Assembly: GCA_027330985.1 (NCBI GenBank)
Contig: DAHVZI010000002.1
Location: forward strand, 139,162-203,161
Direction of reading: 5' to 3'
DNA from: Candidatus Uhrbacteria bacterium
GTDB lineage: Bacteria > Patescibacteriota > Patescibacteriia > 2-12-FULL-60-25
DNA: 64,000 bases
Positions 6,204 to 63,201 of this stretch are shown here, piece by piece. Below the pieces are notes generated by a model. That model had not been told where the DNA came from, did not search any database, and was given only the letters and a program-made list of their open reading frames with translations. The stretch's first letter is position 1. The number at the start of each line of letters is the position of its first letter. The position numbers were made by a program, and so were the translations under genes.

Positions 6204-6220
6204 GTATAGACGAATATACG

Positions 6221-6254
6221 AAAACACCTCGGTAATTAGAACCGGGGTGTTTTC
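6221..6254 (+). terminator. rho-independent terminator
   Basis: AAAACACCTCGG-loop-CCGGGGTGTTTT hairpin followed by T-rich sequence, after the stop at 6203. Confidence 0.55.
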
Positions 6255-6322
6255 GTATAAAGGATTGACAAAACTGCGGTTTTGATTTATGTTTTGCCAT
6301 CGCTTGATCATCGATCGGCGAC

Positions 6323-15029: not shown

Positions 15030-16595
15030 ATGGTTGCAAAAATTAAGTCCGAAAGGCTTTCAAAAGGGCCTGTTGTGGTGATTGTTTGGGATGGTTTCGG
15101 TATAAGTTCCAATAAAGAAGGCAATGCGGAATATTATGCCAAGATGCCTGTTTGGCATAAGCTTTTGGCGGAATATCCAGATTCTTTGCTTTGGGCTGAT
15201 GGAATCAATGTAGGCTTGCCGCCGGGACAGCCGGGAAATTCCGAAGCAGGACATGCCACGATCGGAGCCGGCAGACCGGTCGAGACCGATCAGGTCGCCA
15301 TAGATCGTTCGATACGCGACAAGTCTTTCGAGAATAACCAAGCTTTGATGCAGGCGGCGGCGCACTGCTTACGTAACAAGAGCACGCTGCACATGATGGG
15401 TCTTTTGACAGACAACAAAAGCGGTCATGCATCGCCTTATCATGTAGATGCCTTGATCGACTTCGCGTCGACGTTCGATCTGCCACGCGTCGGTCTGCAT
15501 CTGTTCACGGATGGACGAGACACCTCTCCGTTCCGTGCGGCTTCCCTGATCGCCGAGCTGGAAAGGAAATTGCCGAGCAACTTCAAGATCGCCACCGTGA
15601 TGGGACGTTTTTATGCGATGGACCGAAATAAGTATTGGGAACGTACGGCAATGGCGTATGCCGCGTTGACCTCGGGTCTGGGCGTAGTCGCGGAATCGGC
15701 GACTGATGCCATAACGAATGCCTATACGCGCGGAGAAAGCGATGAATTCATCACGCCGACGGTCATCTGTCCGGACGATTACTGCGAAGCACCGGTCATG
15801 GATAACGACGCGATGATCTTCTGGAATCTGCGTTCAGACCGTGCGCGTCAGCTGACCAAGCCTTTCGTCATGCCAGACTTCGAGAAGAAAGAACGTCATT
15901 CCTTCAGGCGTAAGGCCAAGCTGAAGAATCTGATGTACGTCACCATGACAGAATTCGCCAAGGATCTGGACAGCGTCATCTCGGCCTTCCCGCATCGTGA
16001 GGTCCCGGGTACGATCGTGGAAGCTCTGCGTTACGATAAGCAGATGTATATCGCCGAGAGCGAGAAGTTCTCGCAAGTGACTTATTTCTTGAACGGCGGT
16101 TATGATAAGCCAAGGTTCCATGAGGAACGTATCCGTATTCCGTCAAGACGTGTCGCACGTTATGACCATTCGCCGCGCATGAAGGCTGATGAGATCGCCA
16201 GGAACGTAGTCAAATCCATCGGCGAGAAGTATGATTTCATCCTTGTGAATTTCGCGAATGCGGATATGGTCGGGCATACGGGTAACCTGAAAGCAGGCAT
16301 CAAAGCCTGTGAAGCTTTGGATGATGCCTTGGGCGTGATCTGGAAAAAATTGAATAAGGTAAAGGGCACGTTGATCGTGACGGCTGATCATGGGAACGTC
16401 GAACGCATGACTTCACCTTCCGGCGGAGCGGATACGGAGCATGACATGAGTCCGGTGCCTTTTCTTGCGGCAGGGGATTGCGTAAAATCAAAGAAGGCCC
16501 AGCGAGGGACGCTCTCCGACATCGCTCCGACCGCGCTGTGGCTGTTGGGCGTCGAAAAACCTAAAGAGATGACAGGGCATAATCTGCTAAGATGA
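15030..16595 (+). CDS. gpmI: 2,3-bisphosphoglycerate-independent phosphoglycerate mutase, divergent paralog
   Basis: Full-length similarity to iPGM: GNSEAGH catalytic Ser region, TDGRDT, ADHGN. More divergent than the downstream copy. Confidence 0.8.
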   Translation: MVAKIKSERLSKGPVVVIVWDGFGISSNKEGNAEYYAKMPVWHKLLAEYPDSLLWADGINVGLPPGQPGNSEAGHATIGAGRPVETDQVAIDRSIRDKSFENNQALMQAAAHCLRNKSTLHMMGLLTDNKSGHASPYHVDALIDFASTFDLPRVGLHLFTDGRDTSPFRAASLIAELERKLPSNFKIATVMGRFYAMDRNKYWERTAMAYAALTSGLGVVAESATDAITNAYTRGESDEFITPTVICPDDYCEAPVMDNDAMIFWNLRSDRARQLTKPFVMPDFEKKERHSFRRKAKLKNLMYVTMTEFAKDLDSVISAFPHREVPGTIVEALRYDKQMYIAESEKFSQVTYFLNGGYDKPRFHEERIRIPSRRVARYDHSPRMKADEIARNVVKSIGEKYDFILVNFANADMVGHTGNLKAGIKACEALDDALGVIWKKLNKVKGTLIVTADHGNVERMTSPSGGADTEHDMSPVPFLAAGDCVKSKKAQRGTLSDIAPTALWLLGVEKPKEMTGHNLLR

Positions 16596-18172
16596 ATATG
16601 AGACCGAAACCTGTAGTGTTGATCGTAGTGGATGGTTTGGGCATAGCCCCGCCTGCCGACGGTAATGCCGTCGTCGAGGCGGAGATGCCGAATTTCAGGC
16701 GCTATGTCGAAAGTTATCCGGCGATGACCGTGCTGGCTTCGGGTTCGGCTGTGGGTCTTTCCTGGGGCATGATGGGTAATTCCGAGGTGGGGCACTTGAC
16801 CATCGGAGCCGGTAGGATCTTCTTCCAAAGCATCCCGCGCATCAGCTTCGCCATCGAGAACGGAGAATTCTACACGAACAAAGTCTTTTTGGACGCCATC
16901 ACGCACTGCAAGAAGACGGGCGGTAAGATACATCTGATGGGGTTGGTCTCGCCTGGCGGCGTGCACTCCTCGGATGCGCATCTGCATGCATTGCTCGATC
17001 TCTACAGCCGCCAGAAATTCGATAAGGTATTCATCCATGCTTTCCTTGACGGACGCGACACCATCTTCAACAGCGCATTAGGTTTCATCCATGACCTGGA
17101 AGAGAAGATAAAAGAATACAAGGTCGGCAAGATAGCGACGGTCTGTGGGCGTTATTTCGCCATGGATCGCGATAACCGTTGGGACCGCATACAGAAGGCC
17201 TACGACGCCATGACCAAAGGAATCGGCGATCTATTGGCGCCGTCCGCAAGCGAAGCGATACAGCATTGGTATGATCAGAAAGTCTACGACGAAGAAATTC
17301 CGCCGACGGTCATAGAGAAGGGCGGTAAGCCCGTGGCTATAGTGGAAGCTGGCGACGCGGTGATATTCTTCAATACCCGTCCTGACCGTGCGCGTGAAAT
17401 CACCAAAGCCTTCGTGCTGCCGAGTTTCGAGAAGTTCCCGCGCGAGCAGATAAAGGATCTATATTTCGGGACCATGACGGAATACGAAAAGGATCTCCCG
17501 GTGTCCGTGGCTTATCCGCCGTTGGCCATAGACAATTGCCTGGCGAAGGTCGTCTCGGATGCCGGTCTGCGTCAGATGCATATCGCGGAGACGGAAAAAT
17601 ACGCCCACGTGACATTCTTCATGAACGGTATGGTCGAATCCGAATTCCCTGGCGAGGACAGGGTCATCATCCCGAGTCCGCGCGTCTCGACTTATGACAA
17701 AGCACCGGAGATGTCGGCGCCGCTCATCGCAGATCGTGTCGTCGAGGAGGTCTCCAAGGGAAGCTATGATCTGATCATCCTGAATTTCGCCAATCCTGAC
17801 ATGGTCGGGCATACGGGCGACGAAAAGGCGACAGTCGAGGCGTGCCAGACGGTCGATAAATCCATCGCGAGGATAGTGGATGCAGTCTTGGCTGTTGGGG
17901 GAGTCGTACTCATCACAGCGGATCACGGTAATGCCGAAGAGGTGAAGAATCTGATGACAGGCGATATGGACAAGGAACATTCGACCAATCCCGTGCCTTT
18001 CATCATCATCGGAAAACAATTCGAAGGCGTACGCGCGCCTATCGGCGACGTGGTGGGAGGGGACCTTTCGTTGACTACACCGGTCGGCATGTTGGCTGAC
18101 GTGGCGCCGACGATATTGAAGATCATGGAACTGCCGCAGCCAGCGGAAATGACAGGAAAGCCGTTGATCTGA
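16592..18172 (+). CDS. gpmI: 2,3-bisphosphoglycerate-independent phosphoglycerate mutase
   Basis: Strong similarity to E. coli GpmI (VVDGLG, GNSEVGH, LDGRDT, YAMDRDNRWDR, ETEKYAHVTFF, ITADHGNAE, EMTGKPL). The start overlaps the upstream stop (ATGA). Confidence 0.9.
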   Translation: MNMRPKPVVLIVVDGLGIAPPADGNAVVEAEMPNFRRYVESYPAMTVLASGSAVGLSWGMMGNSEVGHLTIGAGRIFFQSIPRISFAIENGEFYTNKVFLDAITHCKKTGGKIHLMGLVSPGGVHSSDAHLHALLDLYSRQKFDKVFIHAFLDGRDTIFNSALGFIHDLEEKIKEYKVGKIATVCGRYFAMDRDNRWDRIQKAYDAMTKGIGDLLAPSASEAIQHWYDQKVYDEEIPPTVIEKGGKPVAIVEAGDAVIFFNTRPDRAREITKAFVLPSFEKFPREQIKDLYFGTMTEYEKDLPVSVAYPPLAIDNCLAKVVSDAGLRQMHIAETEKYAHVTFFMNGMVESEFPGEDRVIIPSPRVSTYDKAPEMSAPLIADRVVEEVSKGSYDLIILNFANPDMVGHTGDEKATVEACQTVDKSIARIVDAVLAVGGVVLITADHGNAEEVKNLMTGDMDKEHSTNPVPFIIIGKQFEGVRAPIGDVVGGDLSLTTPVGMLADVAPTILKIMELPQPAEMTGKPLI

Positions 18173-18187
18173 TTAGGGTATTTTCTT

Positions 18188-18247
18188 TGCTGCGGAACTC
18201 CCCCGCCCTTCGCGAAAGGCGGGGTCAGACTTTCCGAGCCGCAGAAG
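18188..18247. repeat. palindromic intergenic element, copy A
   Basis: GCTGCGGAACTCCCCCGCCCTTCGCGAAAGGCGGGGTCAGAC with outer CTGCGG/CCGCAG arms. About 40/43 nt identical to the core of the element at 61010-61102. Confidence 0.6.
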
Positions 18248-18294
18248 CTGGTACGATCCGATCAGTCAAGAAAAGCAAGTAGAAAAATAATAGT

Positions 18295-19128
18295 ATGCCT
18301 GAATTGCCGGAGGTAGAGACTATAACCAGACAGCTGGATGAAGCATTGGCGGGAAAAAGAATCGAGTCCGTCGAACTTTTGAGGTTCGGGAGGGAGGAAC
18401 CGGTGGGAAAAAAGTTCGTCGCATGTTTGACGGGCAAGAAGATCAAGAAGATAGAACGTCGCGCTAAGCTTGTCGTGTGGCGTTTTGCTGACGGGTCGGT
18501 CATGTTTACGCATCTCAAGATGACGGGACGCTTAGTCTTGGCGGATAAAGGGATCAAACCCGGTAAGCACGACCGGGCGATATTCGGCTTTTCGGTACGC
18601 GGTACGAAGAACGCGGCACGAGACGTTTTAGTCTGGTCTGACGTACGACAGTTCGGTTTCATGAAATGCCTTTCGGCGGATGAGGCGAGGAAAGTCTTGG
18701 ACGCATATGGACCTGAACCTTTGGAGATCAGCGTCAAGGAATTCGCGGATCGACTCTTGAAGCCGAAGACACGTAAGGTGAAAGTAGCTTTGATGGATCA
18801 GTCGACCATCGCAGGGATCGGCAATATCTATGCTGACGAGGCTCTGTTCCGGGCTGGAATAAGACCGACTCGTCCATTGGGCAAGCTGACGGCTAAGGAA
18901 CGTTCGGAGATCGCGAAACAGGTCCAAAAATTGCTGAAGCTCTCGATCAAACACCGTGGGACAAGCGCGAACGACTATGTGGATGCGTCCGGCAAGCAAG
19001 GGAATTTTCTTAAGCTGCTGCAGGTTTACGGCAAAGGCGGGGAAAAGTGCGTGAAGTGCGGTACGCCGATAAAACGAATCGTCATCGGTCAACGTGGGAC
19101 GCATTATTGTCCCAGATGCCAGAAATGA
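18295..19128 (+). CDS. mutM: formamidopyrimidine-DNA glycosylase
   Basis: N-terminal MPELPEVE, H2TH region, C-terminal zinc finger CxxC...CxxC. Confidence 0.9.
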   Translation: MPELPEVETITRQLDEALAGKRIESVELLRFGREEPVGKKFVACLTGKKIKKIERRAKLVVWRFADGSVMFTHLKMTGRLVLADKGIKPGKHDRAIFGFSVRGTKNAARDVLVWSDVRQFGFMKCLSADEARKVLDAYGPEPLEISVKEFADRLLKPKTRKVKVALMDQSTIAGIGNIYADEALFRAGIRPTRPLGKLTAKERSEIAKQVQKLLKLSIKHRGTSANDYVDASGKQGNFLKLLQVYGKGGEKCVKCGTPIKRIVIGQRGTHYCPRCQK

Positions 19129-60324: not shown

Positions 60325-60441
60325 CCGAAACGACATCGAGCCCCGGTCAGCACAAACTGTGCGCCGGGGCTCTTGCTTTTGATAAGCAAACGAACGGAGG
60401 TTGTCCGTTCGTGAGCGCGACGTGAGTCGTCGCGAGGTAGG

Positions 60442-60966
60442 TCAGCCGTGTCTCGGTGTCTTGAGGCCGTTCGCGCTCAATACATCGAGGTCGAAGCAGA
60501 CGGCCATGATGGCATCGCCTTGGCTTACGGGGAAGTAGTAGTCAAGGAAATTCCTGTCCTGGACGACTAACGGACTGCCCGCGTCCAAAGATTGCAGCAG
60601 ATCGCGGTAAGCCTGGACGTAGAGGTGCTCATCCACCATCAAGCGGCTGAAAAAAGCTTGGGCTTCGGTCAGCGTCGATACGTCGGCCAGTGTAGTGTTG
60701 GCCGAGTAGTCGTGCGCCGCTTGGCATTTCCACCAGACGTTAACGATGGGGTGACGTTCATCGCGTGTTCCGACATCAGGGTCGGTCGAGCTGCGTTCGT
60801 ACAGCAGGGAGATGAGGAACGCATTCTCATCCGCATGTCCGAAATGCATCCGTAGGACGCGTTTCCCGGCGAAGTGGACGGCCAGGATATCGGCGTAGCA
60901 GAGGGTGATGGTTGGAGCTGAACGACTGACTGGGCGAAAAGTACGTTCTTGCATGGCGACGGGCAT
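60442..60966 (-). CDS. hypothetical protein
   Basis: 174 aa from the internal ATG (MPVAMQERTF). The longer track ORF to 61509 would read through the palindromic repeat element and is rejected. Confidence 0.4.
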   Translation of the reverse strand: MPVAMQERTFRPVSRSAPTITLCYADILAVHFAGKRVLRMHFGHADENAFLISLLYERSSTDPDVGTRDERHPIVNVWWKCQAAHDYSANTTLADVSTLTEAQAFFSRLMVDEHLYVQAYRDLLQSLDAGSPLVVQDRNFLDYYFPVSQGDAIMAVCFDLDVLSANGLKTPRHG

Positions 60967-61009
60967 ACAGTAGGCACGATGTAGGTTGGGGGTCAAGAGA
61001 GGGGGGTGA

Positions 61010-61102
61010 CCAGATGAAAATGGTTTTTTGGGCTGCGGAACCCCCCGCACTTCGCGAAAGGCGGGGTCAAACAGTCCTCGCCTCAAAAAACCATTTTCAT
61101 CT
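61010..61102. repeat. palindromic intergenic element, copy B, with perfect 20-bp terminal inverted repeats
   Basis: CAGATGAAAATGGTTTTTTG ... CAAAAAACCATTTTCATCTG flank the core GCTGCGGAACCCCCCGCACTTCGCGAAAGGCGGGGTCAAAC, which is shared with 18188-18247. Confidence 0.65.
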
Positions 61103-61204
61103 GGTCTTAGAAAGGAAAGAAAAAGGCTGCGGGGCGAGAGTCTCGTTCTTGAAAAATAGTTCGTTTTACGGTACAAGCGTGTTGGCTCTTTTTTTACGGA
61201 GGTT

Positions 61205-61891
61205 GTGATGGATGACGACGACCATGAGACCGACGATGAGGGTCGGGCAGGGAATTCCGGCTGGCCCTTCAGCTCGCTTGTCGGCGTGGCGCCGATAACT
61301 TTCCTTACGTTCGCATTGAGCGTGTGGGTGCTGAACCTGATCCGGTTCAAGTGGCAGATAGATTTGCCGGCTGATTGGCTATTGGATTGGATGCTGTTCA
61401 TCTTCCTGCCATACTTGTGCATCGCTGGGGCCGCGAACAATGGGATCGTCCCACGCGTCTCTGGCCCGGCTTTCATCTGGGTGACGCGATTAATGCTGCT
61501 GGCGAACACGTCCGCGATCCTGTCTTTTCCCGTGTTCCATGCGTGGACGTTCGGTCCGGATCATTGGGATTGCTTTAGGGACCCCGGTATATGGAAAGAA
61601 CATCATCCCGAGGTCGGGGGTAAAGTCAGCGGTTATCTTTGCGACTCGAACCTGCGCGAATGCGTCGTCGGCGTCCTTGCGGAACCAAAGTCGGCGTATA
61701 AGGTAGAGATGGATGTGTTGCCTTGGTATGAGCCGCACTTCGCCGTCGATGAGGAAGACTGCAGGAATATGGTCGCACGACCGTTCAGCGGTGAGGCTTT
61801 GCCAGCCATCGGGCGCCGAGTCGTCATCAAGCGTGAACTCTGCACGACCCTACGCCGACTTCCGCCTGGCACTTTCCGTGTTTCGCCTTAG
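61205..61891 (+). CDS. hypothetical membrane protein
   Basis: 228 aa. Asp-rich N-terminus and three or four TM helices. Confidence 0.45.
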   Translation: MMDDDDHETDDEGRAGNSGWPFSSLVGVAPITFLTFALSVWVLNLIRFKWQIDLPADWLLDWMLFIFLPYLCIAGAANNGIVPRVSGPAFIWVTRLMLLANTSAILSFPVFHAWTFGPDHWDCFRDPGIWKEHHPEVGGKVSGYLCDSNLRECVVGVLAEPKSAYKVEMDVLPWYEPHFAVDEEDCRNMVARPFSGEALPAIGRRVVIKRELCTTLRRLPPGTFRVSP

Positions 61892-62073
61892 GGCAGCACG
61901 GTGTATCGCCGTTCCGGATCCTTTCGGGGCGGCGTTTTCTTTATCATGCTATAATCGCCTTGATTATGTCCCGTTAGAAGTCCGACGGGACGCATAAGCA
62001 TGCCTCAGTCGAAGAGGACTTAAGTCTGGAGTGATTGTCTGTCGAGATTTTAACTTAATACTTCTAACGGGAT

Positions 62074-63201
62074 ATGATGATCGGAATAGAGGCGACGCGC
62101 GCCAACAAACCCGGCAAAACCGGGGTAGAATGGTACGCTTGGCATATAATCCAAGAGCTCAAGACCCTGACCGCTGGCGACGGGAATTCATGGATCCTTT
62201 ATTCGAATAAGCCGTTGACCGGGGGGTTGGAGAAGTTACCGGAAAATTGGTATGAAGTGCGGCTAAAATGGCCGCTGCCTTACGGTTGGACGCAGATCCC
62301 TTTTTCATACGAGCTCCATCGGCACAAGATAGATGTCTTGTGGATGCCGGGGAGCACATTGCCGAGGATTTTTCCGGCCAAGACGGTCGTGACCGTCCAT
62401 GACATCGGCTTCCATCGCTTGCCTCATCTGTACAAAAAACGTCAGGTCCATATCCACGAACGGGCGATGAAGGAGATCGCGAAAAAGGCGGCGCGAGTGA
62501 TCAGCGTCTCGGAATTTTCCGGACGCGAGATCTCCGAAGCCTATGGGATCAACTCGAATAAAATCGCCATCGCCTATAACGGCATAGATCATGGGACGTA
62601 TAAACAGATCAAAGATGGGGATGCGGTGGAAGAGAGATTACGGCGCTATCGCGTCAACCAACCGTTCTTTTTGGCCATCGGCAGACAGGAGGCGAAGAAG
62701 AACATCGCCATGCTGGTCAAGGCATTCACGCAATTCAAGGTTCGCCGTGGCGTAGGCGATCCTTTCAAACTTGTGTTGATGGGACCGCAGGGATTCGGAT
62801 ACGAAGACATCAAACGCGAAATAGCGAATTCGAGCGTCAAATCCGACATCCTTGAGTTGGGATATGTGCCGGAGGTTGATAAACCGTACATAATCTCGGC
62901 GGCGCACGCCTTGATCCATCCTGCATTCTACGAGGGGTTCGGCATCCCGCCGATCGAAGCGATGGCCTGCGGTACGCCGGTGATTTCGTCGAATGCCGCT
63001 TCATTGCCCGAGATCATGGGCGACGCGGCCCTGTATTTTTCGCCGGAAGAACCGGAACAGCTGATAGGCATGATGGACAGGCTGATCCAGGAGCCGAATC
63101 TGCGGACAACGCTCTCGACGGCTGGTCTTGAGATGGCGAAACGCTATACATGGAAATCAGCAGCCGAGAAGATCTTGCCGGTACTTACACGATGGGCGTA
63201 G
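62074..63201 (+). CDS. family-4 (GT-B) glycosyltransferase
   Basis: EGFGIPPIEAMACGTPVISSN E-x7-E motif region typical of GT4. Confidence 0.8.
   Translation: MMIGIEATRANKPGKTGVEWYAWHIIQELKTLTAGDGNSWILYSNKPLTGGLEKLPENWYEVRLKWPLPYGWTQIPFSYELHRHKIDVLWMPGSTLPRIFPAKTVVTVHDIGFHRLPHLYKKRQVHIHERAMKEIAKKAARVISVSEFSGREISEAYGINSNKIAIAYNGIDHGTYKQIKDGDAVEERLRRYRVNQPFFLAIGRQEAKKNIAMLVKAFTQFKVRRGVGDPFKLVLMGPQGFGYEDIKREIANSSVKSDILELGYVPEVDKPYIISAAHALIHPAFYEGFGIPPIEAMACGTPVISSNAASLPEIMGDAALYFSPEEPEQLIGMMDRLIQEPNLRTTLSTAGLEMAKRYTWKSAAEKILPVLTRWA

Follow-up and report, generated by a model that had tools for sequence, protein, structure and literature searches.

A strand-specific hairpin module with two near-invariant blocks at the tips of free inverted repeats in a Patescibacteria genome and in unrelated bacteria

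Streamlined genomes of Patescibacteria are thought to be poor in repeated or selfish DNA, and the question raised by this locus is what a long, near-perfect palindrome with a second, partly degenerate relative represents in such a genome. The 64-kb window, by which we mean the whole stretch of DNA that was analysed, carries the palindrome at 61008-61106 (copy 2) and its relative at 18164-18269 (copy 1). The sequence-only reading that preceded this work proposed a REP/MITE-like repeat family, a conserved small RNA, a protein-binding site, or recombination or insertion boundaries. The host belongs to the Patescibacteria (CPR), the label carried by the nearest named homologue of the 227-aa protein encoded beside copy 2, and the window is 98.6–98.8% identical to the MAG "bacterium isolate FK3.bin42". 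Its gene content, including MetRS, a UvrD-type helicase, exonuclease VII, ribosomal protein L10, MreB, Nth, and Fpg, is ordinary housekeeping. The window encodes neither a RAYT nor any transposase, integrase, or reverse transcriptase, and a tRNA/tmRNA scan of it returned nothing. GC content and GC skew are flat over both copy sites, and the word GCTGCGG is not enriched among the intergenic words of the window.

Copy 2 consists of an outer stem (P1), two conserved blocks (A and B), and an inner hairpin (P3) held between the blocks, with the following parts.

61008..61030, minus strand, copy 2 outer stem P1, first arm; the plus strand reads GACCAGATGAAAATGGTTTTTTG, the exact reverse complement of 61084-61106
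61032..61042, minus strand, copy 2 conserved block A; plus strand GCTGCGGAAC-C, family consensus GCTGCGGAACTC, invariant in the family alignment
61043..61066, minus strand, copy 2 inner hairpin P3; CCCCGCA CTTCGCGAAA GGCGGGG, based on folds and family covariation
61067..61082, minus strand, copy 2 conserved block B; plus strand TCAAACAGTCCTCGCC, family consensus (C)TCARACAGTCCTCGC
61084..61106, minus strand, copy 2 outer stem P1, second arm; plus strand CAAAAAACCATTTTCATCTGGTC, pairing with 61008-61030

The perfect 20-bp terminal inverted repeats described earlier are real and slightly larger, with 23 perfect pairs between 61008-61030 and 61084-61106, and the 53-bp core between the arms has the letters quoted. 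Arm pairing extends inward at lower quality (32 nt at 88%). RNA folding of the whole element, a check that the sequence-only reading had suggested, gives -57 kcal/mol on the plus strand and -60 kcal/mol on the minus strand, with a z-score of about -8, and P3 on the minus strand folds into a stem of roughly 10 bp including a U-G pair. The arm sequence is absent from copy 1 and from every family member compared, and its 22-mer has no other site in the window at ≤3 mismatches, with none expected by chance. Relative to FK3.bin42, the sole difference in copy 2 is a 1-nt T indel in block A, where the T is missing in the window strain. The gap that contains the element measures 238 bp. On one side is a minus-strand 174-aa gene (60442-60966), on the other a plus-strand 227/228-aa gene (61205-61891), and neither gene has a Pfam match. 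A target-site duplication, which the sequence-only reading had suggested looking for, is absent from copy 2, where the flanks (...GGGGGGT and TTAGAAAG) have only a single T in common.

Copy 1 is located in a 122-bp gap between gpmI (16592-18172; the second of two tandem paralogues) and fpg (18295-19128), and gene coordinates on each side bear out the intergenic placement claimed for both copies. Its parts are as follows.

18164..18269, minus strand, full extent of copy 1 with its imperfect outer stem; the gpmI-side arm spans the last gpmI codons and the stop codon (TTG ATC TGA)
18189..18200, minus strand, copy 1 block A; GCTGCGGAACTC, canonical
18201..18224, minus strand, copy 1 inner hairpin P3; CCCCGCC CTTCGCGAAA GGCGGGG, differing at one position from the P3 of copy 2
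18225..18240, minus strand, copy 1 block B, degenerate; TCAGACTTTCCGAGCC where TCAGACAGTCCTCGCC is expected

The core identity of about 93% reported between the copies was reproduced, with 39/42 positions (93%) identical between 18189-18230 and 61032-61072, one 1-nt indel, and two substitutions; a repeat finder describes the similarity as 47 nt at 83%. The CTGCGG/CCGCAG outer arms attributed to copy 1 are present, but they are merely the inner end of a longer imperfect stem spanning ~18164-18269. The fold of copy 1 has a z-score of -1.1 over its full extent (plus strand) and -2.2 over its inner 76 nt (minus strand). The two copies have the same orientation and lie 42.8 kb apart. A third copy in the 64-kb window was found neither by mismatch search nor by covariance model, and the core 17-mer occurs at ≤3 mismatches at two sites only (0.4 expected), matching on both strands because it is palindromic.

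A genome-wide search for the core, which the sequence-only reading had proposed as a copy count, found few sites within the genome, whereas the blocks proved widespread outside it. On the 1.52-Mb contig of FK3.bin42, a core-derived 20-mer occurs at the same two loci only, a query that copies with other inner hairpins would escape. Scanning a genome collection with the exact 20-mer CTTCGCGAAAGGCGGGGTCA returned the two FK3.bin42 loci and five chance matches in other taxa, the string being part of the variable inner hairpin. We then ran the degenerate pattern GCTGCGGAACN{15,45}TCARACNKTCCKMG on metagenomes and viral contigs, and it matched at least 120 metagenome loci from unrelated bacteria. 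Viral contigs contributed 4 loci only, which rules out a phage-typical module. A covariance model (R1), trained on 34 members, picks up 130 copies within 100 of the metagenome loci, of which about 20 were missed by the pattern, with more copies in further loci. The same model, which answers the covariance search suggested earlier, also finds both window copies: copy 2 at 61028-61084 (39.5 bits, E 4e-9) and copy 1 at 18185-18242 (14.9 bits, E 0.14). The low score of copy 1 is due to its diverged block B, as its orthologues in three relatives (L011, L012, and L141) score 47–51 bits.

The family is defined by two near-invariant blocks, GCTGCGGAACTC and CTCARACAGTCCTCGC on the window plus strand, that flank a covarying hairpin of free sequence, and the whole module caps the tip of a long inverted repeat that is likewise free in sequence. 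Block invariance is partly imposed by the search pattern, and diverged members exist, such as a Variovorax variant and copy 1 of the window. Several positions that the pattern left unconstrained are constant nonetheless, namely the TC after AAC, the A and G in ACAG, and the TC in TCCTCG. The GC content of the host loci examined ranges from 0.33 to 0.71; one carrier contig (L048) belongs to Gallionella/Gallionellales, and the variant lies on a Variovorax paradoxus replicon. Plasmid sequences searched by BLAST with the mosaic element and the canonical 47-mer yielded only the Variovorax variant and unrelated partial matches, none of them annotated.

Covariation supports the proposed anatomy. All 5 modelled pairs of P3 show double changes, and the covariation score across 123 distinct sequences is 0.324 compared with 0.091 after shuffling, a value that 0/500 shuffles reach. 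The pairs immediately outside the blocks also covary, and slid-partner controls collapse. GCUGCGG/UCCUCGC, seven positions with two mismatches among them, is invariant in the main family. The Variovorax variant has the fully complementary CUCGCAG/CUGCGAG in its place, which supports a helix there and leaves AACUC and CUCARACAG as an invariant internal loop. Outer stems range from 7 to 52 bp and are often 20–50 bp long, and the 121 inner hairpins include 56 triloops and only 5 tetraloops.

The strand built to fold is the complement of the strand quoted in the sequence-only reading, i.e., the minus strand of the window, and three independent signals agree on this. The folding strand reads 5'-GCGAGGACTGTYTGA, then a stem, a GNA loop, and the returning stem, and then GAGTTCCGCAGC-3'. 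Among the 56 triloops, 51 are closed by C-G, and TGC, TAC, and TTC on the plus strand correspond to GCA, GTA, and GAA (GNA) on the minus strand. Isolated mismatches in P3, read on the plus strand, are A.C in 14 cases versus G.T in 3, and an ungapped count over 39 non-redundant clean outer stems gives A.C 19 versus G.T 4. A plus-strand A.C becomes a G.U or G.T wobble on the minus strand, and the summed wobble-type mismatches favour the minus strand by 33 to 7. An earlier gapped count of outer-arm wobbles (58 vs 61) is unreliable, as its alignments ran into flanking direct repeats, and the ungapped count was used instead. The minus strand is also the more stable one in 126–130 of 140 elements with RNA parameters and in 121–122 of 140 with DNA parameters, and both window copies likewise fold better as the minus strand. 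The usual leading-strand C-to-T mutation bias would produce the opposite strand asymmetry.

The age of the module at these loci can be read from related genomes, whose syntenic contigs were reached via homologues of the flanking proteins. In the gpmI-fpg gap of three other species (L011, L012, and L141), both blocks (GCTGCGGAACTC and CTCAGACAGTCCTCGC) surround an inner hairpin of unrelated sequence, and Fpg is 86% identical to that of the window in L011 and L012 and 63% identical in L141. The outer stems of these three modules exceed 20 bp, are of unrelated sequence, and are near-perfect in L011 and L012; in all three, the gpmI-side arm takes in the last gpmI codons and the stop codon, and the opposite arm is complementary to it. 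The gpmI-fpg hairpins of L011 and L012 fold with z-scores of -6.6 and -6.95, and that of L141 has -57.6 kcal/mol on the minus strand versus -49.0 kcal/mol on the plus strand. Three further relatives (L013, L014, and L142) have long hairpins between gpmI and fpg without the module. A long gpmI-fpg hairpin is present in 7/7 related genomes, and the module is at its tip in 4. L141 groups with two module-less relatives (73–74% Fpg identity), which implies at least two losses of the module or, alternatively, at least two gains at the hairpin tip.

At the copy 2 locus, L008 and L010 contain an altered, non-hairpin version, GCTGCGGGGCTCGTTTCAGTCTATCTCGAACACATCCTCG, with an identical 28-nt centre and flanking proteins that are 47% identical. 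Copy 2 is canonical and copy 1 degenerate in the window, and the reverse is found in the L008/L011 genome. Each of the two fully sampled genomes has one canonical and one degenerate copy, which suggests that one good copy, at the least, may be required. Both loci occur in the same order in a related genome, about 34 kb apart. The canonical blocks are kept at the orthologous locus beside Fpg proteins of 63–86% identity, where the intergenic surroundings have become unrecognisable. Judged from these comparisons, the persistence of the blocks resembles purifying selection for a host function and would not be expected of a selfish repeat. P3 is nearly identical between the two window copies and unrelated in their orthologues, from which we infer that copies 1 and 2 probably exchanged sequence by gene conversion within the genome. 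In this small genome, the module is low-copy and old, with no active spread.

Across the wider family, the module is mostly intergenic and occurs in all four orientations relative to the neighbouring genes (13/12/10/9), with no bias toward either replication strand as judged by GC skew (23 vs 18). Clustering of ORFs within 600 bp and over whole loci, for about 130 members, found no recurrent neighbouring protein family beyond spurious ORFs read from the repeat and generic ABC ATPases, and Pfam searches of the translated repeat found nothing. A cis element linked to one gene class was therefore rejected, given unrelated neighbours and all four orientations. An intrinsic terminator was rejected as well: a T-rich tail follows only 2/76 simple-context members on the plus strand and 6/76 on the minus strand, and a terminator scan was negative at both window sites. 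Where low-GC loci have co-directional neighbours, the mRNA sense falls on the plus strand in 11 cases versus 4, so the stable fold tends to be antisense there. On Betaproteobacteria-like contigs, the module is present once in each arm of 600–700-bp inverted mosaics, together with other small hairpins, an arrangement that resembles BIMEs. A low-GC contig (L119) has four copies within 12 kb in a single orientation, three of which share inner arms. Their complementarity runs into unique flanks (e.g., GCTCG...CGAGC in one copy and GATTA...TAATC in another), with the flank repeat inverted rather than direct, which indicates that the inverted repeat did not just arrive as part of the element. Either palindromes that already exist receive the tip, or templated correction would extend the palindrome after arrival.

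Any reading has to accommodate the anatomy, covariation, strand asymmetry, wide distribution, and age at these loci, all of which are directly observed. We tentatively prefer a REP-like repeat that folds as single-stranded DNA (or as a transcript) and presents an invariant internal loop to a putative protein partner, and we give this reading somewhat less than an even chance. The minus strand would fold as a single strand, presumably of DNA rather than RNA, and the internal loop would serve as a docking site for the putative protein. The repeat would establish itself at intergenic hairpin tips and stay there, and the long arms of these hairpins may grow by templated correction of the palindrome. 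We prefer this reading because orientation is near random, inverted pairs occur in mosaics, promoter and terminator signals are lacking, the GNA triloops are of a DNA type, and the module sits at hairpin tips. It is weakened by the presence of just two copies in 64 kb, the missing GTAG/CGTC tag, the lack of a transposase in the window, the invariance across phyla, and the signs of purifying selection, and these same features suit a structured ncRNA or RNA domain transcribed from the minus strand. In such an RNA, the rod-like hairpin would show the invariant loop to an RNA-binding protein or ligand, two 5'-GA-3' steps would flank the apical stem, and RNase III could act on the long perfect stem. 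Strong covariation argues for it, as do the wobble tolerance and higher stability on one strand, which form the classic signature of an RNA helix; functional RNA motifs typically combine invariant loop nucleotides across phyla with free stems, orthologous loci have kept canonical copies, and the pairing of one canonical with one degenerate copy in each genome fits a trans-acting gene. However, Rfam 15, searched at gathering and relaxed thresholds with the window and 12 family loci, returned only one tRNA and chance matches to miRNA-type hairpins, and scans found no terminator beside the hairpin on either strand and no promoter-like site nearby. The loops are mostly 3-nt C(GNA)G with 5 tetraloops among 121, and such triloops typify stable DNA mini-hairpins rather more than RNA families. 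In addition, the stable strand is antisense to genes at the low-GC co-directional loci (11 vs 4), the likely promoters of the two divergent genes, placed by eye on the basis of conservation, both lie downstream of copy 2, and inverted pairs occur inside mosaic repeats on Betaproteobacteria-like contigs. We regard a minus-strand ncRNA as the main rival, though a rather unlikely one. The conserved small RNA of the sequence-only reading survives in this form, but on the strand opposite to the one quoted.

The remaining explanations fare less well against the same evidence. Copy 1 and its orthologues begin at the gpmI stop codon and are flanked by two co-directional genes, stems are often 20–50 bp long, and there is some excess of the plus orientation with co-directional genes at low-GC loci (11 vs 4), all of which would fit a cis-acting hairpin on the plus strand of an mRNA, at an intercistronic position or 3' end, that, like REP and Correia hairpins, stabilises or processes the upstream message with its tip as a protein or RNase site. 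Nevertheless, the plus strand folds worse and its mismatches are of the kind that breaks plus-strand pairs, orientation is near random over all loci, sites between divergent genes occur (e.g., copy 2), and a U-tract is absent, which makes this account improbable. A double-stranded operator for a dimeric transcription factor, with a TTCGCGAA centre and GCTGCGG boxes and control over fpg and the divergent pair, would explain why both window copies are upstream of plus-strand genes, why three lineages have kept a second GGCTGCGGGG box (61125-61134) ahead of the 227-aa gene, and why the non-hairpin 28-mer of L008 and L010 is identical beside flanking proteins of 47% identity. We consider it highly improbable, since the palindromic centre is the least conserved part of the family (P3 is free and changes by compensation), strand asymmetry is meaningless for a duplex site, and the module occurs in any orientation beside unrelated genes. 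The strand asymmetry and the covarying hairpin of free sequence likewise clash with the earlier suggestion of a protein-binding site in double-stranded DNA. Least probable of all, to the point of being scarcely credible, are attL/attR-type boundaries of an integrated 43-kb element. Such boundaries would be in keeping with two copies of the same orientation 42.8 kb apart, but GC content and skew are flat at both sites, and the interval holds housekeeping genes neighbouring MetRS, the UvrD-type helicase, exonuclease VII, L10, and MreB, with no integrase. Moreover, both loci are found in the same order about 34 kb apart in the related genome. Recombination or insertion boundaries, as put forward in the sequence-only reading, find no support in these observations, as the 43 kb between the copies is housekeeping DNA of flat composition and the two loci keep their order in a relative.

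The REP/BIME repeats are among the closest known systems. Like the module, they are imperfect palindromes in non-coding, intergenic DNA; they can face either way and form alternating mosaics in some hosts, have strand-specific features implying a single-stranded form, and can sit at the 3' ends of genes. REPs are lineage- or species-specific, number tens to hundreds per genome, and are mobilised by RAYT/TnpA-REP tyrosine HUH transposases. In contrast, the core of the module is invariant across phyla, and what is conserved is an internal loop around a free hairpin rather than the palindrome itself. A 5' GTAG/CGTC tag is missing beside the hairpin on either module strand, and RAYT (a Y1 HUH transposase) is found neither in the window nor recurring beside the roughly 130 members. 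The two copies in 64 kb are far below REP densities, although L119 is denser (4 per 12 kb). The REP/MITE-like family proposed earlier is thus the closest of its options, but the module is not high-copy here, being spread widely across genomes instead, and it is missing both the MITE features and the REP tag. It differs from MITEs in that copy 1, copy 2, and other members each have arms of unrelated sequence, copy 2 has no target-site duplication, and the flanks in L119 continue the inverted repeat.

Other hairpin systems share part of this anatomy. The Correia/NEMIS elements of Neisseria are MITEs whose inverted repeats form mRNA hairpins cleaved by RNase III; like the module, they are long, near-perfect intergenic hairpins of ~100 nt, and some are co-transcribed with their neighbours. 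However, Correia elements are confined to one genus and show TA duplications as well as terminal inverted repeats that are conserved, whereas the module conserves its tip only. A 9–10-nt stretch, CAGACAGT, presumably resembles Correia sequence. Integron attC sites resemble the module as folded single strands with a variable terminal hairpin, conserved unpaired or bulged basal positions, and apical length variation. Unlike them, the module has neither RYYYAAC/GTTRRRY boxes nor a complementary AAC/GTT pair, and it occurs singly or as inverted pairs, without the cassette arrays, uniform orientation, or integrase context of attC. The sub-terminal hairpins of IS200/IS605 elements and of their miniature derivatives (PATEs) are strand-specific DNA hairpins read by protein as ssDNA, but they conserve the hairpin sequence and form direct ends around tnpA/tnpB or a remnant, whereas the module hairpin is free, its paired copies are inverted, and replication-strand bias is absent. 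Shorter likenesses, which we take to involve the hairpin-ribozyme substrate (GACAGUCCU), the type I-E CRISPR repeat (GAGTTCC), 5S rRNA (GAACUCAGA), a K-turn-like tandem G.A, and a CsrA GGA motif in a bulge, are unsupported by the rest of the module anatomy.

Intergenic palindromic repeats are a known kind of element; a conserved, strand-specific loop carried on free hairpins from Patescibacteria to Betaproteobacteria is not known to match any described family. Searches of the published literature by block sequence, mosaic motif, and REP/CPR keyword found nothing relevant, although a description may exist under another name, and the supplementary REP tables of two REP surveys do not contain the core string. 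It is conceivable, if doubtful, that the module represents a new cross-phylum class of structured element with a ~27-nt invariant loop, shown on one particular strand at the tip of otherwise free hairpins, and a widespread protein reader, either a loop-targeting mobile hairpin or an ncRNA class. If so, a motif of ~50 nt would fix ~27 positions over 33–71% GC and at least two distant phyla while standing outside Rfam. Motifs fixed to this extent usually point to a conserved machine as partner or to a highly promiscuous mobile element, and model R1 makes the partner searchable by phylogenetic profiling. An old, strand-specific hairpin at fixed loci would then be a rare regulatory or structural element or a sign of gene flow with other bacteria, and its sharing between Patescibacteria and co-occurring Betaproteobacteria could be a trace of DNA passed between ultra-small bacteria and the cells that neighbour or host them. 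As a minor observation, several of the other hairpins in the Betaproteobacteria-like mosaics show the same C-TGC-G loops.

At the copy-2 locus, two relatives of the window (L008 and L010) carry a 28-nt intergenic sequence, GTTTCAGTCTATCTCGAACACATCCTCG, where the hairpin of the module would be, and a second, GCTGCGG-containing box is found at the same locus:

L008 9865-9892, 28-nt intergenic sequence
L010 1-28, the same sequence, letter for letter
Window 61125-61134, second box, GGCTGCGGGG
L008 9933-9943, second box
L010 71-81, second box

The 28-nt sequence has no hairpin form, and no further copy of it was found in the window or the fetched loci. The flanking proteins of the L008 and L010 lineages share only 47% identity, although GTTTCAGTCTATCTCGAACACATCCTCG matches fully between them, and the sequence is clearly under selection. 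The second box, AAGGGCTGCGGGG, is kept across three lineages (the window, L008 and L010) and lies immediately 5' of the 227-aa gene's likely promoter. The window's version of this promoter is TTGAAA-N17-TACAAG, that of the relatives TTGATT-N17-TATAAG. The second box may have a regulatory role, or else may be the leftover of another module.

Open reading frames cross the module both here and in L119, a 40% GC contig holding four module copies in 12 kb:

Window 60442-61509, minus strand, 355-aa ORF through copy 2
Window 61014-61208, plus strand, 64-aa ORF through copy 2
L119 1438-11107, four module copies, all in the orientation of the surrounding genes
L119 4980-5744, 254-aa ORF containing two of the four copies

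Both ORFs spanning copy 2 are almost certainly artefacts; one public assembly (L009) lists the 64-aa ORF among its genes, and the true minus-strand gene beside copy 2 starts at ~60954-60966. The 254-aa ORF of L119 is probably not a gene.

Other hairpins and an inverted repeat also lie in the window:

Window 60338-60412, terminator-like hairpins set back to back in the gap separating the convergent PD-(D/E)XK nuclease and 174-aa genes
Window 61963-61981 and 62060-62078, inverted repeat, 19-nt arms (89%), 78-nt spacer
Window 6215-6259, near-perfect hairpin, 19-nt arms (TATACGAAAACACCTCGGT and ACCGGGGTGTTTTCGTATA), 7-nt loop

The plus-strand hairpin at 60338-60412 (GAGCCCCGG...CCGGGGCTC) is followed by a T-run and its minus-strand counterpart (ACGAACGG...CCGTTCGT) by a T-rich tail; the genome therefore does use canonical terminators, from which the studied element differs.

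The gpmI-fpg gap, which holds copy 1, follows tandem gpmI paralogues (cofactor-independent phosphoglycerate mutase), an arrangement kept in every related genome examined:

Window 15030-16595, gpmI, 521 aa
Window 16592-18172, gpmI, 526 aa, overlapping the first by 4 nt
L013 1087-1183, L014 3943-4000 and L142 2408-2500, long hairpins in the gpmI-fpg gap

These three hairpins of related Patescibacteria are A+T-rich or repeat-like and are present despite the lack of the module. Long hairpins in intergenic DNA seem typical of this clade.

In the mosaic elements, the module co-occurs with a companion small hairpin, GTACTTTCTTTTGC-TTCG-CCAAAAGAAAGTA followed by CCAAAGAAAAGGCGACCCC:

L021 900-1000 and L140 1500-1560, companion hairpin
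Matches H2-H18, similar copies on plasmid or chromid replicons of distant genera (Ralstonia, Pasteurella, Ilyobacter and Chitinibacter)

The copies in these replicons carry no annotation.

The inverted repeat at 61963-62078 is no module copy; it ends at the codon where translation of the GT4 glycosyltransferase gene begins. The 6215-6259 hairpin lies 3' of the 406-aa gene, and a TTGACA-like box comes next.
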